64,000 nt of DNA, taken from NCBI GenBank assembly GCA_048213135.1, contig PS015061.1, forward strand, positions 31,172-95,171. The letters run 5' to 3'. The DNA comes from Reclinomonas americana ATCC 50394 (taxonomy: Eukaryota). Both the position numbers and the translations under genes were made by a program. Positions 6,299 through 64,000 of the stretch are shown piece after piece. Each line of letters starts with the position of its first letter. Within the stretch, counting starts at the first letter, position 1. The notes beneath the pieces were generated by a model. That model did not search any database. It saw only the letters and a program-made list of their open reading frames with translations, and was not told where the DNA came from.

Positions 6299-9200
6299 CG
6301 ACAGGCGCATCTGTACGCATACACAGAGCGATAGGCGCATAAGTACGCGTCACCTTACAACCAAAGCTCCTTCACTCCCTCGCTCTCTCTTCTCTCTCCC
6401 TCCCTCTCCCNNNNNNNNNNNNNNNNNNNNGACAGGCGGCCGATCTGTACGCGATACACACGAGCGATAGCGCCTAAGTACGCGTCACCTTACTAACCAA
6501 CGACTCCTCCTACTACCCTTCCTCTCCTCCCTCTCTCTCTCTCTCCTCCCTCCTCCCTCCTCCTCCTCCTCCTCTCTCTCTCTCTCTCTCTCACACTCTG
6601 TGGACCTTCAGGCGTCACCTGACACATCGCGTCCGCTCCTCCGATCCTTCACTTCTCGCTCTCCCTTCTCTCTCTCCTCCCTCGCCTCTTTCCTCTCTCT
6701 CCCCCTCCCTCCCTCGCTCACCTCTCTTTCTCTGCACAGCTTCTCGGAGCGCATTCGATCCCATGGACGTGCCTGTGGAGGGTCGATCGATGACGGTGTA
6801 TGCGGCGCTGTCGCAGGTGCTGCATCGGTGTATCGATGAGACGGTGATTATCGAGGTGTTGACGCTGATGGATACGCTGTTGGAGCATCGTTGCGTACGG
6901 AGGGAACGCGGGGGAGAGGGTCGTGCAGATGAGCTGGCTGTCGGGCGAGTTGAGCACGCAAATTTATCGAGTGAGAGAGAAAGAGAGCATGCAGACACAC
7001 GCATACGCAATGGCGTGGTGTATTTGTCAGCTTCCACTCTTCTTCCTTCCCCTCTCTCTTCCCTTCCTTCCTCTCTGCCCCCTTCCCTCTCCACCCCTTC
7101 CCCTCTCCGCCCCTCTCCACCCCCTTCCCCTTGTGCTCCCTCTCACTCCCCCTTCCTTCACCTCCTGCAGACGTCTACCTCACGGTCTCCACCCGACAAG
7201 CGGTTCACAAGCACGGCTTCATGGGCAAATTCGTGGCGCTGCTGTGCGCGCCGCCCATGAACATTCAATCGAAACGCATTCAACAACTGTGTGCCAACTG
7301 CTTGCATGCCGCCATGTTTGGTGCGTCTCTCCCTACCCCCCATTCTCCACACCGCTCTCTCTTCCTTACTCCGCTCGCGCAGAGTATCCCGCCAATCAGG
7401 ATCTCTTTCGCACCGAAGGCGGCCTGCAGTGGTGCATCACGCAGCTCTTTCTCACCTATACGCAGCCGATCTTCACCTTTGACGATCTGGAGGGCGGCTG
7501 CGGTGGCTCGGCCTCGCCGCACAGCGAAATGCCATTGTCGTCGTCGTCGTCCAGCTCCTCGTCATTAAGTGGCGGCGGGCGCTTCTACGATGTCAACGAG
7601 TCGCAGTCGTTCAACGGCAGCGACTCGAAGCAGCGTGTGCCGGCGCAGTCCAAGTGGGAGACCGAGGTGTGTGCCGAGGCTGGGTGGGAGAGAGAGGNNN
7701 NNNNNNNNNNNNNNNNNNNNNNNNNNNNNNNNNNNNNNNNNNNNNNNNNNNNNNNNNNNNNNNNNNNNNNNNNNNNNNNNNNNNNNNNNNNNNNNNNNNN
7801 NNNNNNNNNNNNNNNNNNNNNNNNNNNNNNNNNNNNNNNNNNNNNNNNNNNNNNNNNNNNNNNNNNNNNNNNNNNNNNNNNNNNNNNNNNNNNNNNNNNN
7901 NNNNNNNNNNNNNNNNNNNNNNNNNNNNNNNNNNNNNNNNNNNNNNNNNNNNNNNNNNNNNNNNNNNNNNNNNNNNNNNNNNNNNNNNNNNNNNNNNNNN
8001 NNNNNNNNNNNNNNNNNNNNNNNNNNNNNNNNNNNNNNNNNNNNNNNNNNNGAGAGAGAGAGAGAGAGAGGAGGGGAAAGGAGAGGGAGGAAGAGAGAGT
8101 ACAGATTGAAGAGACAAAAGGGACGGAAAGATAGAGGGATTAGAGAGAACAGCGAAGTGTCCACGGAAAGTATACTTCTGCTCACTCCGCGACGACAGGT
8201 GGCGGTGGTCATTCTCGGCTCGGCGGTGCTCGGGCATCGTGGAAATCAGGACGTGGTACGCGCCTCGAACGCGCTGTTGGAGCTCACTAAATTACTTCGA
8301 CCGGTGAACCGGGGCCACCACGGTCTGGCACTATGTGCCATCCAGACGCTAAAGCATTGTGTGCAAGGTACGCTTTGATGGAAGACGCCCTTTTCTTATC
8401 TCTCCATCTCTGTCGTGTGCAATTTCTGTCGGTCTTTCACCCTGTGTCTCTCCCCTTCCTTTTGCTCCCTTTCCTCTTCGTCTCATGTGCTATTCCTCTC
8501 TCTGTCCCTCTCTCCTGCGCTCTCCACATCTCGCTCTCTTTCTTTTTTCTCTCGTGTGCGATACCTCCTCCTTTTTCTTTCGTTGTCTCTCTCCCTTTCG
8601 TTCTCAATCCATGCCTCATATGTCGCTCTTGTTTCCTCTTCCCTCTCCTTCGTGCTCTTCACTCCTCTTGATCCATCTGTACCTCCCTCCCTCGCCTCTT
8701 TCATTCCCTCTCTTTCCCTCTCTGTCCACCTCTCCAATTTCGCTTTCTTTTTCCTCCCTCTCCTGCCTCCCTTCCTTTCCTCTCGCACTCTCTCTCCTTA
8801 TCTCTCCCTCTCCTTCACTCCCTTTCACTCCTCCTCCTCCCCAGCTGCCCCTTCTCTTCCTCCGTCTCTCTCCCTCCCTCCCTCTCGCTCTCCCTCTTTC
8901 TCTCCCTCTCCCTCTCCGTCTCCTTCTCACTCTCCCTTGCTCTCTCCCTCTCCCTCCCTCTCCCTCCCACTCCCTCCCTCTCTCTCTCTCTCTNNNNNNN
9001 NNNNNNNNNNNNNNNNNNNNNNNNNNNNNNNNNNNNNNNNNNNNNNNNNNNNNNNNNNNNNNNNNNNNNNNNNNNNNNNNNNNNNNNNNNNNNNNNNNNN
9101 NNNNNNNNNNNNNNNNNNNNNNNNNNNNNNNNNNNNNNNNNNNNNNNNNNNNNNNNNNNNNNNNNNNNNNNNNNNNNNNNNNNNNNNNNNNNNNNNNNNN

Positions 9201-11382: not shown

Positions 11383-12666
11383 TCAAACACCACCTGCACC
11401 TTGTTGCTCGAGCAGTTGCAATCGCACTCTCTCCACATCCGCGTGCCACATGTCGTGCTCCTCCACTGCCCGGTACAGTCGATCGAGAGCGAACGGCTCC
11501 TCACACGGAGGCGGCTCATACCTCACCAGGCGTGTGCGAGCGCGTGGCAGCAACAACATCTCTGCCTCCTCCTTGAGGAAGCACCGTATCACCATGAGCG
11601 GCAGTGGTTCTGTGCCGACGGCACTCCTTTCTTCCTCGACCACTTCCAGCACACCTTCCTCCGAGCACTGGAGCACAGCGACGGCATGTCGCACGCAGAG
11701 CATCTCCCACACAAGGTGCGAGTACACTGTCGAATCGCAGAGTGAGACAGAGACAGAGAGCCAGCAGTCTTTTCTCCCTGTCTCACTGCGCTCGCAACTC
11801 TCTTGTTCTGGCAACTTGTCCTCAGGCCCCCACGACTTGGCACTCCAAGCCGACGGATACTTGGCCACCAACTCAGCGTCGAGGCTGTCGGAGAAATCAT
11901 TAATGGCGATGGGGTCTGCGGAGGCAGTCAGCATCAGAGTGCTGCTGGTGACTGAGAAGCAAAACACCACACAACATCCATCCTCCGTTGCAATCGCCAT
12001 GAGCTCTTCGTCCGACAGCTCGTCCCCAGCAGCGCAATCATCTTCATACATCACAACATCCTCTTCCATGCGAAACATGCGCTCCAGCCGAGAACACTGC
12101 ACGCCTCGTTGCCGACAATACGCCGCGCGGAACTCCTCAAGCTGCAACTCAGCAAATTCCTGCCATCCTACGCCTTGGAGCGCGGTCGCATCGCTGCGGA
12201 CAAGGTCACTCACGAAGCAGCAGTTGTACGGGTCCGAGGTGCGCACCCACTGGTTCTCCCACATCTCCAAGTGGTGCGCCAACCCACCATAGTCGTGGTT
12301 CACAACAAGACGACCAGTGAGCAGGCGTCCAAGTGGCGCAAAGAAGCCGCGAACATAGTTGGCCAGTGGGTGGAAGCGGTAAGGCTGCGGTTTGCGCATG
12401 TAGTCGTTTCCGGGCCAGAAGAGGCGCGTCCCCGAGCGATCCACCATCCAGTTGTCAAGCGTGTCTTGGAGTTGGTCCGAGAGCGATGTGCGGACCCAGG
12501 AATCCTGCAGACGAGTAAGTGCGTGAGAGGGAAGAGAGAGACAAGAGACAAGAGAGAGAGAGAGAGAGGAGAATGATTCAACTCGTGCATTGAAGAGGGC
12601 CACCAAGTCGGGAGGAAGAGGCGGACTGATGATGAGGGCACCGTACACGTAGCCGTCGACGCCCAT
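11383..12666 (-). CDS. Hypothetical protein with a C-terminal module shared with the adjacent WD40 proteins
   Basis: ATG 12666 (MGVDGYVYGALIISPPLPP). Probable in-frame introns at 12505-12582 and about 11728-11787. Contains YSHLVWEMLCVRHA...LPLMVIRCFLKEEAE. Stop at 11383. Confidence 0.75.
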   Translation of the reverse strand: MGVDGYVYGALIISPPLPPDLVALFNARVESFSSLSLSLVSCLSLPSHALTRLQDSWVRTSLSDQLQDTLDNWMVDRSGTRLFWPGNDYMRKPQPYRFHPLANYVRGFFAPLGRLLTGRLVVNHDYGGLAHHLEMWENQWVRTSDPYNCCFVSDLVRSDATALQGVGWQEFAELQLEEFRAAYCRQRGVQCSRLERMFRMEEDVVMYEDDCAAGDELSDEELMAIATEDGCCVVFCFSVTSSTLMLTASADPIAINDFSDSLDAELVAKYPSAWSAKSWGPEDKLPEQESCERSETGRKDCWLSVSVSLCDSTVYSHLVWEMLCVRHAVAVLQCSEEGVLEVVEEERSAVGTEPLPLMVIRCFLKEEAEMLLLPRARTRLVRYEPPPCEEPFALDRLYRAVEEHDMWHADVERVRLQLLEQQGAGGV

Positions 12667-14175: not shown

Positions 14176-14209
<34 letters not shown>

Positions 14210-16044: not shown

Positions 16045-16088
<44 letters not shown>

Positions 16089-17262: not shown

Positions 17263-17327
<65 letters not shown>

Positions 17328-21150: not shown

Positions 21151-22802
21151 CTACGGCGCTTTCGGGGGAGGAGGTATCACTCGCGTGCCCCAGATCATGT
21201 GGATGAGGTGGAGCATGTCGGCCAGGGCGATGAGGCCCATGGCCCAGAAGAAGCAGACGACGTCGGCAATGATGCCGATGGCGGGGACATTTGGCTGAGC
21301 ACTGCGGACGGCCGGCATGGCGAAGCTGCGAAGGTGCAGGAAACTGAGAAGATGGAGCTCAACAAGCGGAGCTGCATTGGTACGCACAGGAAGGCTGTGG
21401 TGAAGATGATGCGGGGAGGCTCGGGTTTCATGTCGCGGGTCCAAACGAGCACAGCGAACGAGAAGACCAGAAGGGCCAGGATCCACATCAGCACCATGAC
21501 GAAGATGGCAAAGAACTGCGCTGCACCATGAACGACAACTGGCATTTCTCGTCACGTGCGTGGTGCGTCTCACCTGAACAGTTTCCGAACGAGCAAACGT
21601 CACGTCCATGCCCAAGAAGACACCGTTGTTGTCAAAGTCGGATACAGTCGGCTGAATGTCCCACCTGGTGCGAGCTTCAGTGATCGATGGAAAATCAGAG
21701 TACCAACAAAAGAACCTCACCCTTGCAGACCACCGGAGAGAGTAAACAGGACCGGAGAAGGAACAACGTCATCGCCGGTGGCCGGCAGGGTCGTGGTGCC
21801 AGAAATAAAGACTGGTGTCGACTGGTACGAGTCGCACGGATAAAAGCTGGCATCTGGTGGGCAAGATGATGGGGAGAGAGAGAGAGAGGCAAAGATCAAA
21901 AGATAACATGTGCTGAGCAAGCATGTCGCAACGCAGCACAGCACGGACTGCCGTACCACCAGTAGCCAGATTGATGGTGATCTCCGTGGAAGGCATAATG
22001 CCACCCTTCTTGAATGCAATGGGCGTTTGGTCTGCACCACCAACATCACACCGAGTGAGGCGGAAAACGGGGTCGGTTTATCGTGATTGCCCAGGAACAC
22101 ACACCGATGGTCAAGTTGACTGCAGTGTTGAGCACGTAGTTGCCGCCCTGAATGTTGCTAAAGTCTCCCACAAAGTCACCTGTGACAACAAACGTGATCA
22201 TGAGTGATTAATTGATGACGTTAGCGCATACGGCCCACATACCACACGGGGCAAAAGTGACTCGCAAGCGGTACGTGCGCGCAATGGGATCGATGGAAGA
22301 CACAGTGCCGAAGATGGCAATAAAGTTGTACGAGGAACACAGTGCAGCGATCTCCTGGTTGCCGCCCACGTTGGGATTGTCGGGGGGGTTGATCACAGCC
22401 ACGGCCTTTGGATAAATCGGCTGCTCATTGGGGTTGGCCTGCGCAGTGGACTTGTTCTTGGCCTGCGCGCGGCGAGTCATGAGCACAGATGCAGCGAAGA
22501 AGAGAGCCATATATATGCATGCAGCGTCATCAACTCACATCATTGGCCGACGACACACCAGCCGCCACGACACCGGCAATCAGTGCCATGGCAAACAGAA
22601 TGGCGCCAATGAGATGCCACGTGCCACGACTAGGCCATTTGCAATTGGCACAGCATCGCCTGGACGCGGCGGCGTTCGGCGGTTTCCTGCTGAAACGTGT
22701 TTTCGTCAAATGATGATCATGCTCATTGATACCATGATTGCATTGCATCAGTTTGCTGCTGCGCGCACAGACGCACATGCATGCTCTCTCTCTCTCTCTA
22801 TC

Positions 22803-22897
<95 letters not shown>

Positions 22898-23435: not shown

Positions 23436-26400
23436 ATGGTTTGCTTCCTCTCTCTTGCCTCCCCTCCCCTCCCTCCTCTCACTTTCCCACTCGCCCACTC
23501 GCCCACTCGCCCACTCTCTCACTCTCTCACTCTCCCAGTCTCTCTCACACCCTCTCGCTAACTCCCTCTCCCTCATGCTTCCCTTTTCCCTTTCGTTTTC
23601 GCACTCACTTCACCCCACTGCCTGTGCACAGGAGGAAGACGCTGCGTCTTCTGCCGCCTCTGCTGCAGTTGCTTCCGCAGTGGAGAATGTGATCGGTGAG
23701 TTTCCGAACGAAGTCTGTCTCTCTTCACACTCTCTTACCTCACACGCGCACTCTCACACAGAGCAACTGTCGTCTGTGCAAGTGGCTGACGATGTCGCTG
23801 TTGCTGCTGTCGAGGATGCTGCTCCCGCTGTTGTTGAGGTTGTTGAGGTTGTCGACTTTGTGTTTCCGAGTCGCCAGCGTGCGGCAGTGCGAGCGAGTAA
23901 CATCGCACACGTGTCCACTGTTGGTGAGGAGCAACATCAGGGGAGGAGATGGAGTGTGCATGGAGTGTGTGAGTGATTGATTGCGCTTCACAATCACAGA
24001 ACAACCTGCTGTTTTTGCGATTTGCGGTGGTCGTGGCTCTGGCAAGTCATTCATGATGCGTCTGGTTGTGGAGGAGATGAAGCGGTCGGGATGGAAGCGA
24101 CCCATTCGGTATCTGCAATGGGATGCACCACAGGTGAGCCACTTCTCTTCTTTTATGCCTTTTGTATTCTGGTGTCGTACGCGTCTTCGCCTCTTCCTCC
24201 TTTCCCTCTTTGACTTCTCGAGTCTTTCTCCTCCTCCTCCCTTTCCTCTTCCTCCTCCTTCTCCTTCTCCTCCTACTCCTCCTCCTACTCCTCCTCCTCC
24301 TTCTTCTTCTTCTTCTTCTTCTTCCCCCTATTTTCCTTACCCTTGATTACCCTCGCGTAGGTCGCCGCTGTTGCCGACGGTGATGGCGAGGGGTCGGAGG
24401 AAGACAGCGCGGCGGGTGTGTGCTACGTGATCGATGGCATGGCGATGGACGACGCACTGGCTGCGCGTGCTGCCGTCGGTGAGTCGCTCGCGCTTGGTAT
24501 CGTTGCCACATGCCTTCTTCGTCATCACACTACTGTGGGAGCAGACCTGGTCAATGCAGTGGCCGTGATTGTGACGTGCACCAACTATGACGAGCGAGTT
24601 TTGCGTCAGGTGCTCAGCGGTGATGAGACGCGCATGTTTGTGCATGTGACAAGTGGCCTGGAGTCGCTGTCGGTGGCGGATGTGGATGCGTTTGTCAAGA
24701 CGGTTGGCGCGCGTGGTGTGGATGTGTCGGGATGGACGAGTGAGGTGTCGGCGCATTTGCTGCGCTCGCTGCAAATGCTGAACAATGCTGCTCCATTGGT
24801 GATGCAGTGTGTAGAGTTGCGTCGTCGACGATTAACCAGTCACCAGGTCCCTTTTTGTTTCTCATTCATCATTTTCTCGTGCACAGACACGCACTCTCCC
24901 GCCATCCGTCGCCACTGTCACCGGCGCTGATTGACGAAGTGGTGCATGCCATCGTCGCGCCACTGGAGCCACTGCCGTCATTGTCGTCGGTGATTGCGGG
25001 ACTGTCGCCGGCGGCGTGTGAGCTGCTCCTGTTCTCCGTGCTGGCCGACGAGTTTCACGTGCCGCTCACTGCCGACTTGGCGACCGCGCTGCATCACTTG
25101 GCGACAGATGTGGCGGCGGCACCGGCGGTGCTGGATGGCGTGGCGAAGGAGGCGATGGCGCTGGGTCATCGGATCGCGCTGCTGCCGATGAGTGTGGCAG
25201 ATCCGACCGACGAGACGGATGCTGACTGGCGCGAGCGACGTGCACGCATTGCGCGTGCGCTTCGTCAAGACGCACCCTTGTCGTCGTCGTCGTCGTCGTC
25301 GGCTGCCGAGGAGCTTGTGGCCACTGGCCTGGTGGAGTGCGTGTCGCACGATGTGGTCGACGCGGTGATGCTGCTGCTGCGGTGCGATGTGGTGCGACAC
25401 ACGAGGCATGCTCCTCGCGGGTGCACCGAGTACCGGCTGCGGTCGACGCTGACCACTCCATGTGTGCATGCCGTTGGTGGCCTCGGTGGCGAGCTGGAGC
25501 GTGTGCGGCATCTCTTCATTTGGGTGCTCTGTGCTGCGTGTACTGCGGTCGATGACATGGATGTGTTTCGTGAACACCTCTGCGGCCGGTATCTGCTGAA
25601 CACGAGCAGCCATTTGTGGACGTGCCTGGCCACGGACGACGGCTTGTGGATGCACTCTGCAGCCGTGGCTCCGGCCGCTGCGCTGCTGTATGGGTGTGGA
25701 GGACGACTGGCGGACTTGTCACGACGGTCGTGGCCGCGTCGGCGTTTCCCGCAGCCACTTGGCGAGCTGCTGTATGTGCGCACGGATCCGCCGCCATTGC
25801 CGTCGCCATCGGGACTGGTGGTGTCCGTGGTGTCGCCCGCGGATGTTCCTGGTTGTGGCGATCCACTGTTTCGAGCTCGGATGCATTGCCGGTCGTGCGT
25901 GGCATACGTGCTGAAGCGCACAAGCGAGTGCGTGGAGGCGTGTACTGCATTGTGGAGTGCCCTCCTCGCCGACGATGGCGGGGAGGTGGCGCGATGCGGC
26001 GCGCAGGCACTTGCCTACCTCGCGGAGTACGCTTGGTTCCTCTTCGAATGCAGTGAATACAACAAGCCGGCACTGATGGAGCTGGTGAAGGCCGGCATTG
26101 CGCGGTCGCGAGAGCTGCACGGCGACAACAGCATGGAGTCGCAAGGCTTGGTCGCCTCATTGGCCATGGCGTGTATGGAGGAAGGTCGTCTGTTGGAGAG
26201 CGAGCAGCTGCACAAGCCTTGCTACGATCTTGCGATCGAATCATTCGGTCGCAAGCACCCCATGTCCCTCGCGTTGGCCTTCATCTCGTCCGGCTGGGTC
26301 AGCGCCTCGGTGCGCGGCGAACTGGACTCTGCATGCACGATCCTGGTCGATTTGCTGGCCAATGTCTGTGAGGTGCACGGCCCGATGGATTCATCGGCCA

Positions 26401-29400: not shown

Positions 29401-30031
29401 CGGTGGCGGTGGCCGGTGCCGAGCCAGCTGTGCTGAACCAGATCGACACGCTGCTACGCGAGTCACTGAGTGTGGTGCGCGCATTCCTGGGCGAGGCTTC
29501 AGGGGTGGCAGGCCAGTTGTTGGTGGAGCTGTCTGTGTGTGCACAGTTGCGAGGTGACACGGCTGCGGCGTGCCAGTTGCTGACGGAGGCCCGAGGCGTT
29601 TTCGCGGCAGAGGCTGGCGAGATGCACGTTCACACCCTGCACGTGATGTGCTATCTGGGTCAGTGTCTGGCCAGCATAAATTCACTGGCGGAGGCGGCGG
29701 CGATGTTGGAGGCCAGTGCAGCCGGGTTCCGACAAGTTTCGTGCGGTTTGAGCTCGAGGGGAAGATGGTGGTGGCTTGCTGATTGTCGATGATGATGTGT
29801 GTGCAGACTTGCGGTGACGAAGACGCCGACGCGGTGATGGCACGAGATGAGCTTGCACGAGTGCGCGGACTGCTGGCGGAGCAAGTCGGCGAGGTCGGTG
29901 GCGAAGAAGGACAACAAGTGCAGCGCGACGATCACGATCAACAGCAGCCGCAACAACAACAACAACAACAACAAATGCAAGGAGCTCAACCAGAGGCGGC
30001 ATTTGAAGGCAACGCACCGGATCCAGAGTGA
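23436..30031 (+). CDS. STAND-type P-loop NTPase plus TPR-repeat protein (NLR-like), copy A
   Basis: Exons: ATG only 23436-23438, 23632-23695, 23762-about 23922, about 24000-24132, 24361-24815, 24887-29735, about 29807-30031. Walker A GGRGSGKS, Walker B-like VCYVIDG, sensor-like VIVTC, GxP-like NAAPLV. Many kinesin-light-chain-type TPRs (..LG..HPDT..S...LA). Confidence 0.85.
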
Positions 30032-41285: not shown

Positions 41286-41724
41286 ATGAAGGAGGTGATT
41301 GTGGGCACTATTGGGATCATGGCCGCGGCTGGCGTTGTGCACTTTGGCACTCGCGCCTTGGGCAGTTGCGTCTCTCTGTTGCACTCACTCACTCACTCTC
41401 TGTGTGTCACACCAATGTGCGCGCGCACTCTCTGTGTGTGCCTTCGTGTGTCTGAGGCAAACCGCACATGACCATGTGACGCTGACACACACACACACAC
41501 ACACAGAGAAGAACGTGCCGGCGACATTGGGCAACCGACAGTGGCAGCGCGAGCAGCACCTGCAGGCGGTGCGTCTCCGTCTCTCTTTCCTTCTTTCCTT
41601 CGTGTTGTGTGAGAGTTGCATCCTGACACTGCTTTTCGCATCTTCGCGTGAGCAGATTCGCGACCGTGCCAACCCAATGATGCACCTCAGCGAGTACAAG
41701 AAGATCGGCGCCATTGGCAAGTAA
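41286..41724 (+). CDS. Small single-TM protein resembling cytochrome c oxidase subunit 4 (yeast Cox5)
   Basis: Three exons give MKEVIVGTIGIMAAAGVVHFGTRALG-KKNVPATLGNRQWQREQHLQA-IRDRANPMMHLSEYKKIGAIGK*. A TM helix followed by PxT...WQ......NP is the COX4-family C-terminal pattern. Confidence 0.55.
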
Positions 41725-47200: not shown

Positions 47201-50200
47201 TCCTCCTCTTCCTTTCTTTTTCTTCTTGTTGTTGTCGTTCACGTGCTTGTTCTTTTTCTCGTTCTCCTCCTTGTGCTTCTTGTCCTCCTCCTCCCTCTCC
47301 TCCCTCTCCTCCTCCCCCTCTTCTCCTACTCCCTCTCCTCCTTCTCCTCCCTCTCCTCCTCCTTNNNNNNNNNNNNNNNNNNNNNNNNNNNNNNNNNNNN
47401 NNNNNNNNNNNNNNNNNNNNNNNNNNNNNNNNNNNNNNNNNNNNNNNNCCCTTCAAAGGAGGTCGAAGTGGTCGTGCCAATGAGCCGCATTCTCGACATT
47501 GTCGTCTGCGAGACCCCGAAAGGCGAAGAGTCACGCTTCAAACTCTTTCGTGCGCTGGCGGTGCGCGAGGGACGGCCACGATTCACCTCCTCGTATGCCT
47601 CGCCGGAGCAGTCAGAGGGCGAAGAGTCGTACGACACGGAGGTATTTGTAGTGTTTTTCCCCCAACATCTCTCTGCTGCTCACGATCACCACCCCGCCGC
47701 ACAGCACGTGTTCGCCAATGTGGTGTTGCACGAGGAGATGCAGTCGGTGCTCATGTCGGTGTGGCGTCGTGTGGGCTCGGAGACCGGCAAGTCGTCCGGC
47801 ATGACACCCGATCGCAAGAGGTACGACGATAGCCGCATTCTCCCTCCTTGCCCGCCCCTGACTGGCAGTGCGCAGGAATGCCGCCAGTCAATCGACGCAA
47901 CTGTACTTTGGAGCCTTCAAGAGGAACCAGCGCTCCAACTTCCAGTGGAGAATTCTGCACTTGGACCTGGAGGCGCACGGTGAGGAGGACCGACCAGTGC
48001 GCGCCATGACCACCATTAGNNNNNNNNNNNNNNNNNNNNTGCGAATGGCCGCGTTCGTCGCGAGATTCCGTACACGGCGTTCCGCGAGTGCAACCTCGGC
48101 AACGTCAATCCCACATCGTGTGTGCTGCACGTCGATCCCTCGGTCTACGACTATCCCATCGAGTTGTTCTTTGAGGGACCGAAGGAGTGCCAGCTGTTTG
48201 TGGCCGTCATTAACGGGCTGATTGTCGATCCGCACTTGTCGGTGGCCAGCTTTCTGTTGTCGCCACCACGCATCGCCTATCACGGTCGAGTGGACGTGCG
48301 CAGCGGTCTCGTGTGGCGCACGCGCTACGTCATGCTGTACCCGCACATGATTGTGCTGTTCGTGTCGGTCATTACGAGGTGCGCTGATGCCCAAATGATC
48401 TGGAGTGTTGCAGTTTTTCTCATTGACGCGACAGATTACCGGAGCGCATTCTCTACACTCGTCACTTGTCGGTGGCCGCAGAGGGCGAACGCGAGGTTCA
48501 TATCCATCAGCAGATGCAGAGTACGCTGGTCAAGTCGCGCTTCCGCTTCCCCTCGGCGATGCACCGCGACGCCTTTGTGCGTCTGCTGTGCGAGGCCATT
48601 TCCCACGATCAGGTGAAGTGCTTCTATTTCGTGACACTGGAGGTCTCTCCTCGTCTCTTGCTGACAGGGGGGTCACGCAGTTCTACGACGTGAAAAAGTC
48701 TGTCATTCGCGCCTGGTGCCCGACACTGGAAACCACCACCGCCGCCTCGTCTCCCACGACCACCAGCCGCTCATCGTCGCCACCGAGCTCCACCGACGAC
48801 GAAATGTCGCTGCCGTCGGAGACTGTCACCTCGTCGTCATTACCGCCGCCGCCACCACCGCCAGCACAGTCGGTGCGCGGCGCCATCATGGCACCGTCCA
48901 AGATCCCCGCCGGCTACGTGGAGCCGTCGGTGGTGGAGCAGACGAATCGAGCCACCGCGGCTGTGCGCGACATGGTGGCCGACTTGCAGTTGCTACGCCG
49001 CTCGCCCTCCGCGCACGTACCGTCGTCATCTTCGCCACCCGTTGGCGGCTCTCCTTCCCGGATAATGTCGTCGGCGCTGCGCCAGTCGCCGCCGTCCCCC
49101 GCCAGCGGGCTGTTGTCACCGACACTCACGGTCGGCTCGGCACTGCCGGCCATTGTGGTGCAAACAGCGTCGCCGCAGTTGGCACCCGTCTCTGCACCTC
49201 TGCCTGCATCGCCGATCCTCGCGCCCACACTGGACGACGAAATCGATGACAGCACGGCTGGCTCGTCGTATTTCGACACGGCCACGTATGGTACGTCAAC
49301 CTTCTCTTTGCCTGATTTCTTGCCTTCTGATCGCCCTCGTTGTGCAGATGAGGACTCGTCGCTGGCACTGCCGGCACCCGCCGAGATCCGCTCCATACTA
49401 TCGACCGGCTCACTGTCGTCGTCGTCGACCGACTTGGACAGTCAGTCGACGCCTGTCGCAGCGGCAGCTGCGGCGGGTAGAGAAAAGGTGCTCCCTCCCG
49501 AGGCGCCGGCCGTGACTGCCGCCGCCCCTCCCTCCACCACCACGACGACGACAACCACCACCACTGCCACTGCTTCGGCTGCCTCTCCATCAACAGAGCA
49601 CCACCGAACGGCGCTGGAGGAGGACGTGGCCAAGGAGCTGCGCTTTGTGGAACAACTCAAACAGCTGCTCGTCGGCTGTCGTTGCGTCCATTTTTTCGTC
49701 TTTCTTGACTCTGTACTTTGCCCTGGCGTGCCGACCACAATATCGCAGGTGTTTGCAAGTACTCACGCAAGGGACGAGCCGACGATGTTGCGTCGCCAGA
49801 CCCTGCGCGTTCTCCCACTCTGCCCGCTAACACCGCCTTTGCCTTCTCTTCATGCAGCGCTATCTCATCTTGTGCGACGACCGTCGTCGCCTGTACTGGC
49901 TCCACCGACGCAGCACGCAAAGCAAGCTGGCCACGCGCGACTGCGCCAGCACCTCGTACATTGACCTGACCGCGCCCGGCTGCCAAGTCCGCCTCGGCCG
50001 CGTCTCTCGCGCCTTCCAACGAGCCACCCACAGCAGCAGTCACCCACACGAACTCGACACTCGCTCGCTCACCGTCTCCCCCGGCAGTGTCTCCGTCAAC
50101 GGTCGCGAGAGCCTCGACTTGGAGTTCCCCTCGGCCGACGAATGCCGCTGCTGGTTCGACACACTCACCACGCTCATTCGACACCACCATCGCAGACAAC

Positions 50201-51047: not shown

Positions 51048-53567
51048 ATGGGTCATTTCCGAGTTGGGTGGTTGGCCACCTCGGCGACTGTGACTGTGCT
51101 TGTAATGGCACTCGCGCTCGGCTATCTCCGATCCTCCTCCTCGTCTTCCTCTGACTCGTCCGCGGAGGACCCGTGGAACGCGACGACAGATGCGGAGTGG
51201 CAACGACTTGTGCACCACGCGCACTTGCGCTCTTCTTCTCTCTCAGCTTCTGTGTCCTCTGCTCCTGAGAAGAGAGTGGCGCTCTTGTTGACGAATGACT
51301 TGCACTCGGCGGCCGCCGGCTGTTCTCGGCGACAGCTCGGTGGATACGCTCGATTGGCATCGAATATTCAGCGGGTGCGCGATGAGGCACAAGGAGTTGC
51401 GTTGTCATATTCTCTCCTCCTCTTTCCTCCTCTTTCCTCCCCTATTCCAACGCAAAGCACAGGTTCTTGTCATGGACGCGGGCGACTGGTGAGCGATACG
51501 CGAAAGATGCTCTGATTTTTTTTGACAGGTGGATCCCTGATTGATTGGCTGTGATGATACCATGTACAACAGGTTCAGCGGGAGTCTGTTTGATATGTTG
51601 GGCCCGTCGAACCGCACGGATCGCGTGCCTGAGTTTGAGTTCTTCTCGTACGCCAAGTACGATGCGGTGGCGATTGGCAATCACGAGTTTGATCAGAGTT
51701 GCGACGGAATCACCACTTGCTTTGTGTGTTTCGTTTTTTTTTTGACGACGTGTCGGTGTAGAACCCGAGGGTCTGCGAATGATGTTGCGCAAGGCGCGTG
51801 CTGCCGGGTTGCAGGTGACTCTGGTGGCGGCCAACATGGTGTTTGGCGAGGCGTATGCCGATTTCAAGGCCGAGTTTTGGCGTGAGGCGCACGATCCGCC
51901 AGAAAACGTCTCCATCCGCCCGTACATTATCAAGGAGATGGCCAATGGCATGCGTGCGGGCGTTATTGGACTCACGGGACCCGACGCGCTGTTGCTGTCA
52001 ATCGGTTCGCGCGATGGCCTCGAGTTTATCGGGTTCGACGATCAGTCGGGCAAAAAGGTAAGACACCGCTCCGCCCGCCTAAGAATGCGTGACCTCTCAT
52101 TGTGATGCCGCAGCGCATGGAACCGGTGATCACGCTAATGAATCAACTCGCGCACAAGCTGCGCCACGAAGACCACTGCGATCTGGTGGTGGTGGTGCTG
52201 CACGGTGGACAGCCGGAAGATTCGGAACTTGCGCAGCGTCTGACCGGCGTCGACTTTATCATGGCGAGTCACACGCATCACGTGTACGTCAGGAAGGAGG
52301 AGCAGAGCACCACCTGGCTGATGCAGTGCCACTCGGAGGTGCGCAGCGCCGCCTGCACTTCACGCTTGCTTCTTGATCTTAATTCACGATTTGCAGGGAC
52401 ACTTCCTCGGCATTCTCGAGACCGGCCGCGAGAGCAATGGTGAGCTCCCTCCGTCGCTGTCTATCTTTATTTACTGCGTGCTTATTGTGTGTCTTCACAG
52501 GCCTGTGGCGCCCGCTGGATGGCGGTTTCCACCCGTGCCGCCCGCAACTGCAGGTCGACAAGGACAACACTGTGGCACGCATGGTGCACGAGTGGACCGA
52601 CGAGTTGCAGACGAAGCTCGACTTGCCGTTTGCGCCAGGCGAGATCTTGTACACGGGCGACAGTGGTTGCGTCGAGAGTTCCAGTGGGGGGAGGGAACAC
52701 AGCAAAATGTGTCTTCGCGTGTTGACGCAATCACTCTCCGCAGCCGCTCTCTTCCGGCCGAATCTCACGCACCCTGAGTACGCACGCATGGTGTTCTCGC
52801 TGGTGCATCACGAGCTCGATCGTGCACTTATCGCCGACGGCGAGGAACCGGTTGACGTGTACATTTCGGCTCCCGGCTGCGCCACTCCCGACATTGTGGT
52901 GCCGGACGCCGCCGGCCGCGTAGCGGTGCGCTTTGCCGACGCGTATCGCATTGTGTCGATTTCGAGCGGCTACCCTGTGTACGTCTTCTACCTCAAGAAG
53001 GTGCGATTGTCATGTATGTGTGTGTCGGATCGATCTGGGGAGACGAGTGCTGACCGGGGCAATGTGGTGCAGTACGCACTGCGCGCTCTCGTCGATCTGG
53101 TCGATTTGTTGCGGTACGCCATGCAAGCTCCGGACTATGCCGTCTCATTGTCGGACTCGGTGTCGTACGAGTCGAGGTGGTGGGGCATTCTCTTCATCAA
53201 CAGGATATACGGTGACGTGCGATTCCCTGTGCTCCCCATTTTATTTACTTGGTACTCAAAACATTGTACGCCAGACATGCGGATGCGCGGCAAGGACTAT
53301 AGCGAGTGGCCGGACCTCGTGCGTGTCGGTGTGACGCAGCCATTCGCCTCGCGCTTCTGGCTGGCCTCCAAGTGGACGATGGGCCTGTTTGATTTGCAGC
53401 CGCGCAACGCTGACGGCGAACCTCTGCGGCCCGAACAGACCTTCACCAAGTACACCGAGTACGAGCTGTTCGCCAACAGTCTGCGCCGATTGAGCGACCA
53501 CCTGCCCGTTCCCGTAGATGCTGTGACCGGGATCAGCGCCGACTTGATCGAGTCCAGTCACCGGTAA
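51048..53567 (+). CDS. 5'-nucleotidase/apyrase-family calcineurin-like metallophosphoesterase with an N-terminal signal/anchor
   Basis: Motifs TNDLHS, GGYARL, MDAGDW, GNHEFD, LHGG and SHTH in order across about 10 exons. Hydrophobic N-terminus; stop TAA 53567. Confidence 0.87.
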
Positions 53568-53684: not shown

Positions 53685-56600
53685 TCACATGCTTTCGTCG
53701 CGCGCGCGCTTTCTGCGCTCTCGCCCAGGCTGCATTTCTAGCCACGACTCGGCACTGACGGCACCATAATTATAGAGTTGGTGTTGTTGTTGCTGCTGCT
53801 GCTGCTGGTGAGCTCGCACCAGTTCCTCGTGCTGCACGCGTTCGCGCGTCTTGGCCTCGCGCCACTCGAGGAATTCTAGGTAATCGGCGGCCGACATGAA
53901 TCGCGGCACCTCCACCAGCGCCCCAGTGGCCGCATTCAGCACCAACGCGGTACCGGCTTCGGTGAGAGCCGTGGCTCCACGCGGGGCCGGCACAAAGCCC
54001 GTGACGACGTCGCGCGCCACCATGCGCAGCGACGACTCCACGCGTTGCTGGTTCTGCTGCAGCAACTCGCCAACCGAAGGCATCGCTTGTGACTGCGTGG
54101 GTGTGATGGTGATGGGAAGCGGAGGAGGAGGAGGAGGCAGCACTCGAGGAGGCGAGGCAACCGTCTCCACTCGCTGCAGTGTTTGCGGGGGTGCCGCATG
54201 CGCTGACGGCGGCGATGGTATTACTGATGTTGACGATGACGCTGGTGGCGGCGGTGGCGGTGGTGGAGGTGGCGGTGGCGAGAGCGCAAGAGGTGCTTGT
54301 TGCTGTTGTGTGGAATCCAGCCCAAGAATGTGCGAACGCTCAACACTGCACACCTCGCACAGTTGCGCCAGCGACTGCAACTGGCCATCCGCTGCCTCCA
54401 TCTGCTCGTCGCTGGCACGCCGTACAGAGGGTGATCGACCCTGCTTCGGAGACTGCAAAATGGTGAGAGAAACGCACACCAAAAGTCAACCACACTTGGC
54501 GTACCAATGAGAGCGGCAAGGGCGGCAGTGCGACAGGCGGGAACAGCGACATTGCGCCGTTGCTGCCACTGCTGCTGTTGCTGGTCGCTGACGGACGACG
54601 CGCATTGTGCAGCGCAAATGTCGGTGGGGAGGCGCCGGAAAAATTGAGTGCCGCCAGCGGAGGCGGCGGCGCAAACGTCAACGAGGTCAGCTTCGAATCG
54701 AAACGACCCGTGTGCGGCTTGCGTGACACCGATGCCGACGGCACGGAAGAAGATGGTGCTGATAGTGAGGTGCCGCCTGTTGCCGATGCTGCTGCTGCTG
54801 CGGCTGCGGCCGCCGCTCGCATCAACAGTGAAGGGGTGCGTGCATCGCCGTCGTCGTCGCCATCATCGTCTTCATCATTATCAAAGTCCATTGCACCAGC
54901 CATGTCCACACCGCCACCATTCAACAGTCCACCGACGCGCGCCGTCGTCATTGTCGACGACGGTGGAAATCGGCAGTGCAAGCAGACAAACTGCACACAC
55001 GAGGTCAGCTGCGAAATCCTCCCGTTAAACAAAGAGCAGGGGACGCAACATCGGGCTTCTGAAACTCGGCGGCCGACAACCCCGTGCGACGCTCCCAACA
55101 CCTCCGGCACGTCACGCGACGACACAAGGGCTTGCCCGACACGGGCGTGATGATGCGAATATTGGAGCACCGACCAGGCTCGTCGCCGGCATTCTTCTTG
55201 CACGTCAGACACGTGCGATGATGCTTGAATCGTGTCGACTGCCCGTCGTCGGCGCCGTTTGCTGCGCGCGACAAGGGATCCGAACTGCGACTGCGCAGCG
55301 GCGATGCCAGAGGTGACACCGACGAGGAGGACGCATCAGCCGCCGCCGCCAGCATGGAGGCAGTTGTTGCAGTCGATCCTTTCCCTCCCGCTCCATTCAC
55401 AATCGACGACAGCGAGAATAGAGGACGTGTGGGCGGCGACAGCGGTGGCGGCAGTGGGTGAGCCGGTGGTGCGGGTGGTCGCGGTGATCCTCCCGAGGCC
55501 AGCGAAGGCGGCAACCATCGAGTGAGCGGCAGCGCCGGTTTCATCGGCACGTCGGTGATAACATCGACGTTCAATGGTCGTCGCGTCAGTGATGGCGACG
55601 GCGCTGGTGTAGCACCGCCACTATCGCCGGGCGAAAACACGGTGTGCGGACTGATGGCGCGCGTCATGGCCAGTGCCGGCGGCACAGAGACGGTGATCGC
55701 CGAGACGCCCGACATGGACGGCGAAGGCATATTCGACGCGTTGACCTTGGCAAACGAGGAGCCGACCTTTTGCTGCGCTGCCCACAGAGAGAATGCCGCG
55801 TCCGCCACTGTGCATGTGCGTGTGTGCGTGTGAGTGTGACATGACAGCAGCGCGTGAGAGAGAGAGAGGGAGTTACAAAACTGTCGTGCTTGTATCGCCG
55901 ACTGCATCGACACTTGCTTTCCAGTGCCTCGGGCACTGCGCAGCGAGTGAGTCACCTGAGTGATCAGCGAAGCGTGCGTGTGGACGACAAACGCAACAGA
56001 GTGATCGAATCGTGTCGGTGACGCGCGCATGCAGAAACTCCGGCAGTGGATTCACCGATGGTGGTTTCCGACGCGACGTGCGAAACGCCTCCGACACCAC
56101 CGCCACAGCACCGTCGGCCGAGACAATGCACAAAAAGAGAATGTTGCTGCGACGCGCATACCCGGTGCCGTGCCCGATGCGAATCACCAACGACACCGGC
56201 ATCCCCGCTCCTCCTCCTCCACTACCGCCACCACCACCAGCATTGCTGCCTGTAGCACCATTCGCACCATTGCTGACATCGTCGAGATTGGCAAAAATCA
56301 CCGGCACTGGCGACGTGTCGTACGAAGTGTAAAACGTGCGACCAATGTAACCTCGCGTATCGTACGGCGCCGTGGCCGACGACACCAGCACCGGGTTCCA
56401 CAGCTCCGGTGGTGCCGGCGACGGCACTGCTTTCCCCCCCGCACATCGTGAACACGCAGCACAAAAAAAAAAAGCGCGCCACTCGATATTCCTCACCTCC
56501 CGGTGGAAACGCCGCCTCAAACAGCAACACGCGACAGCCCGGCACACTGAAATCGGCCGCAGCCGACACCTCATCGGAGCCCGGTCGCACGAGAACACGC

Positions 56601-57518: not shown

Positions 57519-60500
57519 TCACTGAGCGGGGGCGGCAGGCGGTGTTGCTAGCACGCGCAGCACCCGGTCGTCAATGATCGAGGCCAGGTGCGCGAGGATG
57601 CGCGAACTCCGCACCACGTCCTCGGTCAGTGCCGCACGGAACGTGTGGAAGAACGACAAGTCGAGCTGCTCCAATCGCTCGCGCGTAATGGCGCAGTTCA
57701 CCAGCGTGGAGAACGCCAGCATCTTTTGCACCAGCGGCCACAACACAGGGCCCTCAATGTCCTCCATCGAGCTGCCGTCGCCCATCATGGTCTGCGATAC
57801 GTCAAAGTTGTCGTGCACGTCGGCCGTCACCGAATCCACCAATGCTCGTCGCTCGTCCTCCGTGCGCTGGCTGAGAATCTGCGCGCCACAACAAAACGTG
57901 AGCCATCATGGCCGCCACCACTTAACAACAGGGGGATGAACAAACGAACCAACGGCATCATGTGCTCCACAAAGCGGCTGACACGCCCTCGGAAAAAGTG
58001 GCTCACGTGGTCCTTGAACAGACGGTGCAGGTACTCGAGTGCCAAATTGCTCGACACAATCGGCTGCAGAGTGCGTTGATCGGACGCCAGCAGTGCTTCG
58101 CACAGCGAGTCGTGCGCCGCCTCTTGCACTTGCATGGCCTCCTCCAGAGCGTACCATACTGCAACGAACCGCATCGTAAGAGACCAGTCGAAACACAAAC
58201 AGAGAGAGAACACATAGAGAATCGTACGCACCCAGCTCCACGCCAGCTTGTACCGTCTGTGGTGAGGGCAGAGCATTGATGCCGACAGAGGCCACCCACT
58301 GCACGCCACACGCGAAAGAAAGCGTGAGCATATAGCTGCTGCACGAATGAGAAAAAAAACAAGGTCGTGAAGACGCAACGCAGTAATATGGCCTGAAGAA
58401 CTTGTCGTTGGCCATGTCACCCGACTCGACGTACGTGAGACCCGAGTGTGAGAAAATGTCGGACAACATCGACCGCTGACGCAGGGCACTCGGTCCGCCG
58501 AGATCCTTCAGACCTGTGCGCGCAAAGACGTCAGCACATTCGATAACACAAAGTGTGGTCATGATGATGTCTTGCACACGCAACTCGTTTGCTGGTAGAA
58601 ATCGTCGTCGTTCTCTGCATCCAGATCGGCAGGCGGACTGTCATGCAATGTTCGGTGTTCGTTCAACAGCGCCTCCAGCAGCTGATTCCTGCAACCGGCG
58701 TCCAGTGTGCTGAGCAGCTTGCTTAGCTCAATACATGACGAGCGGAGGTGCACAGGCACCGGCCGTGACATGATGGTGAGCAGCGCGAGTTGAATCGGCA
58801 GCTGCATGAATCGTAGCGTGAGAGCCGTGCAGAGAGACTCTCATCTCTTCTGGTGTGTGTGTATACCTTGCTGTCGCCCCACATGCGTGAGGCGTCAATC
58901 GCTGTTCGCTTCAGCATCTCATTTTCGTTCTCAGCGTACATGGCAATCCAGGTCGCCACACGCGTGAGCACGTCAATGGCCAACCCGAGTGGTGTGCAGT
59001 CCTCCTCCACCAACGTCTCCACGCGTTGCTCGATAATCTGATCATCATAGAGTGAGTGAGTGAGTGAGTGAGTGAGTGAATGCGGGATGCGATGACACAA
59101 GGCAGCTGGCTCGCAACGCAACTTGTGACACACTCTCGAATCCGCTGCAGTCCTTGAACATCAGCACGTCGTGGTCGTCGTGAATGCATGCTCTCAGCAG
59201 CTTCAGGCAATTGACCTGATGTCTGTAGAACTTCTCCGACTGCAGCACGGTGTTGATGTAGCGCGTGCGGAAGTTCGCGTTGAGACGGCACGCCACATTG
59301 ACCAGGTGCATCAGCGACGGCACAATCTCGTCGTACTCGTTGTTCTCGATGAGAATGTGCTTCGTGGCCCAGTCGAGATTCTGGTGCTCGGCCACGGCCA
59401 ACGCAAACTGCTCGTTGACGTGGCACGCACGGCACACCACCGCGTAAAAGTCCGGAATCACAGCCTGCAAACTCACCAGCATCAGCTTCCAATCTCTCAC
59501 CACACACACACACACCCCTTCCCGCACGCAACATTATTGTAGGTCACGTAGCGCTCCACCGGACGCAAGCTAATGTAGTGGTCCATCAGCAACACACTGC
59601 TGCGCTCCAACTCTGCCAGGGCCATCGAGGCCGGCGGGTAGTTCTCCGTCGCACGGGCCCAGAAGGCAATGGCGAAGCGCTTGTTCTCGTCACAGTCCTT
59701 GCGCAACTTGTCCATGGCCATCAGCAACTCGAAGAACGCACGGAAGTACTGCACAAAGAGCTCCTTCTCCGCGTCCGACGCCATGCAGAACCGCAACATC
59801 TTGAAGTACGGCACCAACCGCCACACGTGCGGCATGTACGCTGTGTCCTCCTGCTGTCCCTTGGCCGCCGGTTGCACGGGAATAATGTACTTGTGCGCGT
59901 GCGGCAGGTAACCCAACAGAAGCTGCGGAAAAAACAAGCGCGCGGTGAGCAACTCTCACATAGATTCCATGCCTGATCAACACACACGCACCTTGAACAC
60001 ATTGTGCATGATCCGCCGACCCTCGTCAGACAGATCTGCTGGTGGCTCCTCCGGGATCTCGTCGTCGGTGATGCTGGAGAGACCCGCAAGCGAGCCAGGC
60101 GGCAGCTGCGGTCCAATACCCACAAATGGCGCTGCAAGGTGGCACGCAAAGAGAGAGAGAGAGAAAGAGTCAGCGCGCGACCGGAGACAATCATCCGCAA
60201 TGAATCGTGGAGCAAAAAAATATCACACTCACCAGCCGTGTCCATCAGCGACATTTGAATGGCGGCCGCGGTGGCGGCCTGCGAGCCACCCGCGCCACCG
60301 GCGGGTTGCGTGCGACCGCCCGGAATCAGTGTGCGCAGCATCTTGGCAGCCTCCTCACGTACCAGATCGTACGAGTGCGACATCAACAGCGACTCCAGCC
60401 ACTCGGTCATGGTCCGGTACAGGTGCTCGCGCACCAGCTGGTTCTTCTCCGCCAGGCCGACAATGTTGCGCACAGAGTGGAGCGTGGCGTTCTTGAACTT

Positions 60501-62323: not shown

Positions 62324-62360
<37 letters not shown>

Positions 62361-64000
62361 AAAGAACCACTCGTGCATCCATCATCACTCGCCTTCTCAT
62401 CAAATCGGTCGACGTACGTGTCGTTGAACTGGTACCACTTGCGCTCACCCGAGCCGTCAAGCGCCTCACGCTCCTTGATGAACGAGTAGTAGTGACCCGA
62501 GTCGGCAGTTCCCGTGTGCACCAGCACACCGACCAGCTCGTACTGGTAGTACGCCGGATCGCGTTTCAGAGCCGCCTGCAGGCCCTCGTCCTGCTGCTGC
62601 TCCGCCGCTGCAGCAACAACAACAACAACAACAACAACACCAGTGAGATGGCCTGTTCCACCACCACCATACACTCTCTCTTCAAGCACGCAACTCAATC
62701 CCTCGCGCTTCGCCAGACCCTCCTTGGTGTACGGCTCCATGTCGAGCTCCATCGGGAACTCAAAGTAGTCGTTGACCTTGATCTTCTTCATCTGATCCAG
62801 GTCGAACTCGAAGCGCTTGAGGTGGAGAATGAGGTTGTTGGGCAGATCCTTGATGCACACGCGCTTGAGGGCGTCGATCTTGGTGTCGTACTTGTCACAC
62901 TGGTATTTGTTGTCGCCATCCAGCGTCTCGCCACCGACAAACGCCTCCAGCGCCTCAGCCAGGTTCTTCTTGTTCTTCACCGGCAGGCACACCGTGAAGC
63001 ACGGCTCGTCACGCTCGCCCACATACGGGTACTCCGGCTCCTTGCTGATGATCTGGTTGACCTGCACACCACCAAAGAACTGGCGCAGCAGCTCCTTGTA
63101 GCCCGTGCGCTCCAGCGCGTTCTCCATCTTGTCGAACAGCGAGTTGAAGAACTCGTCCACATCCATCTGCTGCGCCGTGTTGACCGGCTGTCCGTCGTAG
63201 TCCTTGTACGACTTGCAGAACGGCAGCGTGTCGTAGTACTTCTTCTCGCTCTCCTGCAGCGAGCCGAACATGAGCTGCAACTGGTACAGCAGCGACTCGT
63301 TCTTCTCCTCCGGCGTCTCGTAGTCGTCGTCCGACATGGCCAGCAGCGAGAGGCGGAATTGCGGAATCATAAACAGCTGCTGCATGAGCGAGTTCATGTA
63401 GCACGTGCAGCCTTGGTTCTTGAGACCGACGTAGCCGCTCTCGCTCTTCTCCATAAACTCGGGCGAGTAGTGCCACTGACTGGTGCGCTTGTCACCTGTG
63501 TGTCGTCGACTGGTGAGCTGACGGACGCACGCAAGCACACTTGTGTTACTCGGTGACAAACCTCCCACTTGCTGCTCCATCAGCAAGTACGACAGCTCGG
63601 CAAAATTGCGCGGCGTGTCCTTGGTCAGCGTCTCCAGCAGGCGGAAGGCCGCGTGGCGGCTGGCACGGGTCTTGCACTTGGGTGCTGCGTACGCACCGTG
63701 GTCGTCGGCTGTCGGAATGGCAAACAGGCACTCGTTGAAAATGTACTTGATGACGCCGGCACTGTCACAGCAGCACGCACGTGAGTGAGTGAGTGAGGGC
63801 GGATGCCTCGACTGGCGTAGCAGACGCAACTGTACTTCCGAGCCGACCATCTCGCGCAGGTCGGGTGAGACATCGAGAAGCGCGCGCAGCACGTCCATCA
63901 GGCCAATCAGCGAGTGATCCACCAGCGCCGTGTTGAGTCGCGACTCAAACGTGGCGTGCGACAAAATCGTCTGCACCAGCTGCTCCACCAGCGCCGGAAT
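57519..64000 (-). CDS. Ubiquitin-specific protease of the USP9/USP24/USP34 family (5' part lies outside the window)
   Basis: Cys box GYVGLKNQGCTCYMNSLMQQL, QQMDVDEFF, LHLKRFEFD, His box VHTGTADSGHYYSFI, WYQFND, NAYMLFYQR, then a long helical C-terminus. About 17 introns join in frame; stop TGA 57519. Confidence 0.93.

Follow-up and report, generated by a model that had tools for sequence, protein, structure and literature searches.

Does the nucleus of Reclinomonas americana ATCC 50394 use a second kind of 5′ splice site beside the ordinary one? The question is raised by a 64,000-nucleotide stretch of contig PS015061.1 (positions 31,172 to 95,171), here called the window, in which an original prediction placed donors beginning with GTTGCG at 17 introns and read them as the donor GTGCGT shifted by one base. 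GTTGCG is indeed found at each of the 17 coordinates, on the strands given, followed by T at 15 of them and by A at two. Sequence statistics together with protein homology support the class as real. We lean towards, rather than assert, the joint reading that the GTTGCGT introns are genuine short GT-AG spliceosomal introns, that a distinct signal recurs at their 5′ splice sites, (R)A^GTTGCGT(C), where the caret marks the exon–intron border, and that this signal is recognized out of register. GTTGCGT appears to open about one in eight introns of the window, and the looser family A^GTT[G/T/A]CGT appears to account for about 12–17% of them.

Recurrence and base composition of the GTTGCGT donors

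The statistics of the class were taken from a set of 120 introns predicted by our gene finder, with the intron at 59532 replacing a wrong model intron; the set holds 15 GTTGCG, 21 GTTNCG and 42 ordinary GTRNG donors. A position-independent donor model predicts 0.79 GTTGCG donors where 15 are seen, so that the claim of a signal beyond such a model is borne out. The bases +5C and +6G occur together in 21 of 35 donors with +3T and in two of 75 donors with a +3 purine (p=2e-11). The last exonic base at the 17 sites is A in nine, C in four, T in three and G in one (52666), as first tallied, and the proposed anticorrelation between −1G and GTTGCG holds, with −1G at 1/17 against 22/42 of the GTRNG donors (p=0.0009). 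Conversely, −1A is found at 9/17 against 7/42 (p=0.0085), and at six of the eight sites supported by homology (p=0.002).

The 15 GTTGCG introns end in CAG (14) or TAG (1), have a median length of 71 nucleotides (nt) compared with 73 nt for the others, and contain visible branch sites resembling CTGAC, CTAAC or CTCAC. They start with GT, by construction, and end with AG, as U2-type GT-AG introns do. The consensus of U12-type donors is RTATCCTT, whereas the sequences here read GTTGCGT. A family of introner-like, transposon-derived elements was considered and rejected: the introns have nothing in common beyond position +8 and no terminal inverted repeats, and ACGCAA occurs in three of 15.

The motif is also enriched in the window as a whole. 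Compared with 100 dinucleotide-preserving shuffles of the window, GTTGCG occurs 72 times (54.1±6.8 in the shuffles), GTTGCGT 23 times (12.9±3.4), AGTTGCGT ten times (2.9±1.8) and GTTNCGT 50 times (30.2±5.3), and none of the 100 shuffles reached the observed count for any of the four. Among the 23 GTTGCGT heptamers, 16 are candidate donors, namely 15 listed originally and 38143. The supposed ordinary partner, GTGCGT, is strongly enriched as well (106 against 61.7), although in the gene models GTGAGT (12), and not GTGCGT (6), leads among the ordinary donors. The enrichment of GTGCGT exceeds its use as a predicted donor (6/120), and either the models under-call it or it has a source other than donors, for example GT/GC-rich repeats. 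Two further AGTTGCGT sites that were not listed lie on the minus strand. One, at 44119, is 24 nt upstream of, and in frame with, the model donor of an intron ending at 44018; the other, at 47901, has the 14-mer AGTACAGTTGCGTC in common with 63830.

Two details of the original list need correction. The 17 sites are not independent, since 24816 and 31407 are paralogous (as are 29736 and 36282), which leaves 16. The related +3U donor at 12582, given without a strand, lies on the minus strand.

Evidence for individual introns

Junctions were scanned against homologous proteins in two genes of the window, one encoding a USP34-like protein and one a GNHEFD phosphoesterase-like protein. Every frame-compatible, stop-free pair of GT or GC with AG was ranked by its summed local alignment score. 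The GTTGCG donor, paired with the acceptor anticipated for it, ranks first at seven junctions, and at an eighth (51396) it is the best among GT donors; removal of the intron restores the frame and collinearity with the homologous proteins at these 8 of 17 sites. At the 59532 junction, tblastn matches stop at 59527–59536 and restart at 59467, and across the 59122 intron residues 2610 and 2609 of the homolog P0121 are contiguous. Two sites had been described as forced by the reading frame. At 63830 the nearby GTACAG does break the frame (alignment score 626 vs 1816), whereas at 24816 a GTGTGT 9 nt upstream is also frame-compatible.

Independent gene models came from our own two-strand Viterbi gene finder, which is built from codon usage, a matrix for acceptors, a prior on intron length and a donor-hexamer table that is free and starts flat, and was trained by hard expectation-maximization. 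Earlier gene finders with flat signals were abandoned as too noisy, and a one-strand version fused genes across strands. In the first training iteration, with flat donors, GTTGCG starts five of 110 predicted introns, where about one would be expected because it makes up 72 of about 7,800 GT sites. In the converged model it is the top donor, with 14 of 120 introns, followed by GTGAGT (12), GTGTGT (7), GTGCGT (6), GTTTCG (5) and GTAAGA (4). Twelve of the 17 claimed introns are recovered (6890, 24816, 31407, 49681, 49787, 51396, 51698, 52666, 58584, 59122, 62694 and 63830), and two unlisted sites are added on the minus strand (11798 and 38143).

The signal precedes the training of the donor table. 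A flat-donor parse in which coding, acceptors and lengths are still modelled as trained yields 125 introns, six of which start with GTTGCG. When all frame-compatible GT sites within ±90 nt of the flat-parse donors are collected (n=411), GTTGCG occurs 13 times against 3.75 expected (p=1.5e-4); the only other hexamer that stands out is GTGAGT (15 vs 3.9, p=1.5e-5), with GTAAGA next. Of the 23 GTTGCG sites within the same distance of flat-model donors, 14 keep the frame (p=0.006), similar to GTGAGT (16 of 22). A donor-blind context score, ranked among all 7,812 GT sites, puts nine of the 16 sites it scored in the 90th percentile or higher, with a hand-calculated binomial p of about 6e-6 for sites that were pre-selected and include two paralogs.

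Forbidding one site at a time always left the intron and its acceptor in place, at a cost of 1.0–10.7 nats, and the introns are therefore robust. The replacement donor was each time another, unrelated in-frame GT or GC. It is recurrence, set against alternatives that are all different, that marks GTTGCGT as the donor.

Table 1 Candidate GTTGCG introns and related sites in the window. Scores are summed alignment scores of junction models; percentiles refer to the donor-blind context score; ban costs are those of forbidding the site in the gene finder.
Feature	Positions	Strand	−1 base	Evidence
GTTGCGT intron, 69 nt, multiple of 3, stop-free, USP34-like gene	63762..63830	-	A	Coincident homolog gap; chosen by gene finder; spliced 1816, unspliced 1566, GTACAG donor 626
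GTTGCGT intron, 87 nt, multiple of 3, stop-free, holds (GTT)8	62608..62694	-	A	Homolog gap; 99.9th percentile; 4286, top of 4 models; others 4217, 4206, 4048 (unspliced 4048)
GTTGCGT intron, 68 nt	59465..59532	-	T	Top of 44 by homology, 2858 vs 2787; missed by gene finder
GTTGCGT intron, 85 nt, (CACT)n within	59038..59122	-	A	Top of 30, 1502 vs 1469
GTTGCGT intron, 71 nt	58514..58584	-	A	Collinear P0121 matches; ban costs 7.7 nats; 104 vs 103 with P0121 only; second with 8 homologs, 465 vs 469
Possible GTTGCGT intron, 81 nt, multiple of 3, stop-free	58299..58379	-	C	By-eye reading; two in-frame models
Possible GTTGCGT intron, 59 nt, weak	54991..55049	-	T	One-strand run only, absent from two-strand run; 80th percentile
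GTTGCGT intron, 78 nt, multiple of 3, stop-free	52666..52743	+	G	Only −1G among the 17 listed; top of 42; 1537 vs 1529 (GTGGTT at 52663), marginal
GTTGCGA intron, 64 nt, GNHEFD phosphoesterase-like gene	51698..51761	+	A	Clear top of 14, 3852 vs 3579; ban costs 10.7 nats
GTTGCGT intron, 67 nt	51396..51462	+	A	Best GT donor of 8 candidates (3093); homolog matches resume exactly at 51463
GTTGCGT intron, 71 nt, CTAAC, pyrimidine tract and CAG	49787..49857	+	T	Gene finder only; 65th percentile
GTTGCGT intron, 68 nt	49681..49748	+	C	Gene finder only; 67th percentile
Claimed GTTGCGT donor, unsupported	41365..41506	+	A	Not chosen by gene finder; best context acceptor 41506, 89th percentile
GTTGCGT intron, 71 nt, precedes large TPR exon, paralog of 24816	31407..31477	+	A	Chosen by gene finder; in-frame GTGTGT 9 nt upstream costs 2.3 nats
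GTTGCGT intron, 71 nt, precedes large TPR exon	24816..24886	+	A	Chosen by gene finder; GTGTGT at 24807 costs 1.35 nats; 99.8th percentile
Claimed GTTGCGA donor, not supported	21927..21932	-	C	Gene finder takes GTTATC at 21907; 34.5th percentile
GTTGCGT intron, 281 nt	6890..7170	+	C	Chosen by gene finder; survives every handicap; ban costs 8.7 nats
Extra GTTGCGA intron, unlisted	11727..11798	-	A	Gene finder
Extra GTTGCGT intron, unlisted	38071..38143	-	G	Gene finder; low-scoring gene
Related A^GTTTCGT intron	29736..29806	+	A	Gene finder; paralog 36282–36351

Register of recognition and competing explanations

The sequence (R)A^GTTGCGT is the ordinary (R)AG^GTGCGT with one substitution. Most likely, base pairing with a small nuclear RNA (snRNA) would take place one nucleotide out of register and catalysis would then follow at the only available GU. 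The usual last exonic G would thereby become the first base of the intron, and cleavage would fall one base upstream of the canonical-register position. The pairing could take the form of a shifted U1 register or of a +3 bulge, the latter fitting the exonic bases less well. The depletion of −1G and enrichment of −1A would follow from a one-base shift, since −1A then replaces the canonical −2A and +1G the canonical −1G. Scored with the matrix of ordinary donors, the 15 sites have a log-likelihood of −115 in the canonical register, +80 when shifted and +86 with a +3 bulge, while the exonic positions favour the shift over the bulge (−2.3 vs −6.1). The consensus is thus displaced as in shifted-register donors (from −115 to +80, with −1A at 9/17 vs 7/42), and the exonic −1G that a +3-bulge register would be expected to retain is present at 1/17. 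Shifted-register recognition is plausible but unproven; we infer the cleaved GT bond, the snRNA that reads the motif and the register in which it does so. The class seems to require the GCGU core, leaving room for a changed or additional snRNA.

Several observations weigh against our reading, some of them concerning the introns and their donors. Four of the 17 listed sites (21932, 41365, 55049 and 58379) are unsupported or undecided; around 58379 the gene finder favours an intron at 58401–58339 with a GTTCTT donor, and homology is uninformative. Homology margins are small at 52666 (1537 vs 1529), 58584 (104 vs 103) and 62694 (4286 vs 4217), and at 51396 GTTGCG is outscored by a GC donor 3 nt downstream (3138 vs 3093). 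The introns at 62694, 63830 and 52666 contain no stop and preserve the frame, which therefore does not force them. When the score of GTTGCG is lowered to −4.4 nats, seven of the 14 predicted sites persist, and at −6.3 nats three do. Training of the donor table may reinforce itself, from five or six GTTGCG donors with flat donors to 14 after training, and the ordinary-donor reference set drawn from the gene models is noisy and very degenerate. The evidence comes from one 64-kb window, from its DNA sequence and from homologous proteins.

Others concern the mechanism. At the intronic positions the +3 bulge is no worse a fit than the shift (+86 vs +80). GTTRAGT, which is what the commonest ordinary donors become when shifted and also the mammalian type, occurs six times in the window against 11.8 expected and is never a predicted donor. 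With the standard U1 5′ end, RNAduplex gives −1.7 kcal/mol for the class consensus, compared with −6.3 for GUGCGU and −11.5 for GUGAGU. Finally, an exon/intron seesaw, that is, a general anticorrelation between −1G and a strong intronic consensus described in PMC11732430, could contribute to the −1G depletion. The proposal that a shifted register forms a major class is partly supported, by an enriched, non-independent and −1G-depleted set of donors; the disuse of GTTRAGT and the weak pairing speak against a plain shift on a standard U1.

The same seesaw is one argument for there being no separate class at all, with the pattern arising from ordinary GTNNGT-type degeneracy and the selection made by the original reader; the very degenerate set of ordinary donors points the same way. 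We regard this as extremely improbable. The seesaw accounts for neither −1A nor +5C: the base at −1 is specifically A and not just any base, and +5 is C, not the G of the seesaw classes. Under independence 0.79 GTTGCG donors would be expected in place of the 15, and the enrichment is present already with a flat donor model. The NN//GURAG subtype of donors and the AG//GUNNN subtype, as presented in PMC11732430, likewise tie weak exonic bases to a strong intronic motif, whereas the +5C of the present donors means that they are not GURAG in register, and their −1 base is specifically A.

GTTGCGT might instead be an element at the 5′ ends of introns whose real donor is nearby, either a GC at +4 (GTT^GCGT, giving a GC-AG intron), a neighbouring GT, or a cleavage at AG^TTGCGT. 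In-frame alternatives exist at every site, at the cost of 1.0–10.7 nats already given, and the GC 3 nt downstream scores nearly as well as the GT in four comparisons (2787 vs 2858, 1469 vs 1502, 103 vs 104 and 1526 vs 1537) and better at 51396. Still, GT wins four of these five, the alternative GT hexamers are all different and unrelated, and an exonic AGTT that stayed conserved in each of the three codon phases would be hard to square with coding. The only clear GC-AG candidate in the window reads AAG^GCGAGT; GCGTNN after T is, to our knowledge, far from the GC-donor consensus, and we know of no precedent at scale for introns starting with TT. We hold it very unlikely that the cleaved donor is any of these. 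For the in-frame, stop-free cases (62694, 63830, 52666 and 58379) it could also be argued that they are low-complexity coding insertions, as they lie inside open reading frames (ORFs), for example the 804-residue ORF at 61586–64000, and contain microsatellites such as (GTT)8. That some of them are not introns is scarcely credible to us: homologs have gaps exactly at these places, removal brings the homology scores up (from 1566 to 1816 and from 4048 to 4286), each has the donor motif, a CTCAC/CTGAC-like branch site and CAG in the correct order, and introns of this kind are not rare here (18/120 predicted).

A different possibility is that a co-evolved or second U1-type snRNA, with a 5′ end containing ACGCAAC or similar, reads GUUGCGU directly. 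The requirement for +5C and +6G, the absence of A-containing GTTRAGT among the donors and the −1.7 kcal/mol of pairing with standard U1 are all consistent with such an snRNA. Compensatory changes of U1 are reported for Entamoeba, Mastigamoeba and Physarum in bioRxiv 10.1101/2022.06.08.495308, and the best named homologs of the USP34-like gene are amoebozoan. On the other side, the −1A preference follows more simply from a shift in which U1 retains its standard ...ACCU... segment, and the coexistence of ordinary GTGAGT and GTAAGA donors would call for at least two forms of U1. A search of the 64-kb window with Rfam at its gathering thresholds returned no family, and hence no U1 or U6 gene there. 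We consider a directly reading snRNA unlikely. A distinctly improbable variant of it has two recognition systems side by side, standard U1 for GTRNGT and a dedicated variant U1-type snRNA, with a 5′ end matching GUUGCGU, for about one in seven introns. Were that so, the dedicated snRNA would in effect define a third class of spliceosomal introns, set apart by a donor helix one base longer.

Recognition out of register, the reading we prefer, has mammalian precedents. According to PMC4856993, rare human sites are documented to use a shifted U1 register, for example with the oligonucleotide CA^GUCAAGUAU, and all validated non-canonical registers together make up about 1.5% of human sites. The mammalian shifted-register donors (Roca & Krainer 2009, cited there) resemble the present ones in that the consensus lies one base downstream, +1G takes the place of the canonical −1G, −1 is A as in the CA^GUCAAGUAU example, and GU stays the point of cleavage, as we suppose it does here. 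They differ in their rarity, about 1.5% for all registers compared with about 12–17% of the introns in the window, and in that the present class uses only the GCGU core, GUURAGU forms being absent. Bulged (+2/+3) U1 registers (Roca et al. 2012, cited in PMC4856993) are similar in that deletion of one U after GU restores GUGCGU. However, a bulge leaves −1 opposite C9 of U1, so that a preference for −1G would be expected, whereas the sites here have −1G at 1/17 and −1A at 9/17.

Among protists, a parallel is offered by Entamoeba, for which bioRxiv 10.1101/2022.06.08.495308 describes GUUUGU donors and a U1 with AACAAAC. The GUUUGU(U) donors have U at +3 and a preference for U at +7, and they set a precedent for U1 5′ ends that change to match donors; an affinity to Amoebozoa may be a further point in common. 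The Entamoeba donor is near-universal (about 88–90% GUUUGU) in an intron-poor genome; the class described here is a minority (15/120) beside GTGAGT and GTGCGT in an intron-dense region. The same preprint gives ACGUAC for the U1 of Mastigamoeba and says that Physarum carries both standard and modified U1 variants. The ordinary partner motif also has counterparts elsewhere: the Mamiellophyceae consensus AG^GTGCGT (PMC3879977, PMC2483917) matches GTGCGT with its +4C, as do the +4-pyrimidine donors of Mastigamoeba and Thecamonas (bioRxiv 10.1101/2022.06.08.495308), although the excerpts of these sources at hand do not report a one-base-displaced companion class for any of them. Our search of the literature, supplements not covered, found no GTTGCG, GUUGCGU or GTTGCGT donor class and no shifted-pairing class in protists.

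Whereas out-of-register donor recognition is a rare exception in humans, here, if the reading is correct, it would serve a tenth or more of the introns. The rules of 5′ splice-site choice, such as which snRNA fixes the bond to be cleaved, could then be tested on natural variation, and the genome would offer a concrete case for or against the co-evolution of snRNAs and introns. Standard gene finders would be misled, as the scores that a position-weight donor model assigns to these sites lie far beneath those of ordinary ones (−115 for 15 sites), and annotation would consequently be wrong in a systematic way at about one in eight introns.

Genes and other introns of the window

The window has a G+C content of 45–62% and contains 11 runs of N. 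A Pfam search of 30 reading frames gave matches in eight; those at the cut-off are TPR, UCH, AMP_N, 3Beta_HSD and WD40, and three matches, including DUF4436 and BP28CT, fall under Pfam's own cut-offs. Most of the donor-bearing genes in this search belong to no Pfam family. The USP34-like deubiquitinase (Pfam UCH) occupies the minus strand between about 57.5 kb and the end of the window and has 240 homologs. The top homolog is P0121 at 49% identity, and the highest-ranking ones with a name come from Amoebozoa and Glomeromycota, at about 40%. The contigs of the nearest relatives barely exceed the coding sequence and are probably transcripts without introns.

The GNHEFD phosphoesterase-like gene (50994–53567, plus strand; homologs P0241–P0268) has eight exons and a GNHEFD metallophosphoesterase motif, and its weak homologs of 560–660 residues are collinear with the exons. 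We presume that it resembles a 5′-nucleotidase; a Pfam search of its last exon gave no match. For the ORF 48399–49964, in the region of the 49681 and 49787 introns, the homolog search found none. A large TPR gene is present on the plus strand in tandem duplicate (24.3–30.3 kb and 30.9–36.8 kb), with a single exon of about 1,650 codons and many TPR_12/TPR_10 repeats. The copies are 96% identical across the 261 bp compared and thus too alike for the comparison of 24816 with 31407 to tell exon from intron.

Within the USP34-like gene, the segment 62294–62392 (minus strand) is a likely GC-AG intron of about 99 nt, AAG^GCGAGT...GTGCAG, in frame, stop-free and rich in (CT)n. The homologs have a gap exactly there, and the gene finder kept the segment as exon. 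At 63490–63560 (minus strand), a 23-residue segment of the USP domain is missing from all close homologs. No good frame-compatible pair of donor and acceptor exists there, the sole option being a 48-nt GTCACC...CCAG, and the segment is probably a real insertion rather than an intron.

Introns with a length that is a multiple of three make up 34 of the 120 predicted, and 18 of the 120 are stop-free as well. If retained, such stop-free introns would go unseen by nonsense surveillance, and ORFs called naively run straight on through them. At 61586–64000 (minus strand), three or four in a row leave the 804-residue ORF open across the USP domain. Many short introns contain microsatellites, (CACT)n, (CT)n or (GTT)n, just upstream of the acceptor, which there also act as branch sites of the CTCAC type or as pyrimidine tracts; examples on the minus strand are 59040–59080, 62300–62360 and 62610–62640.

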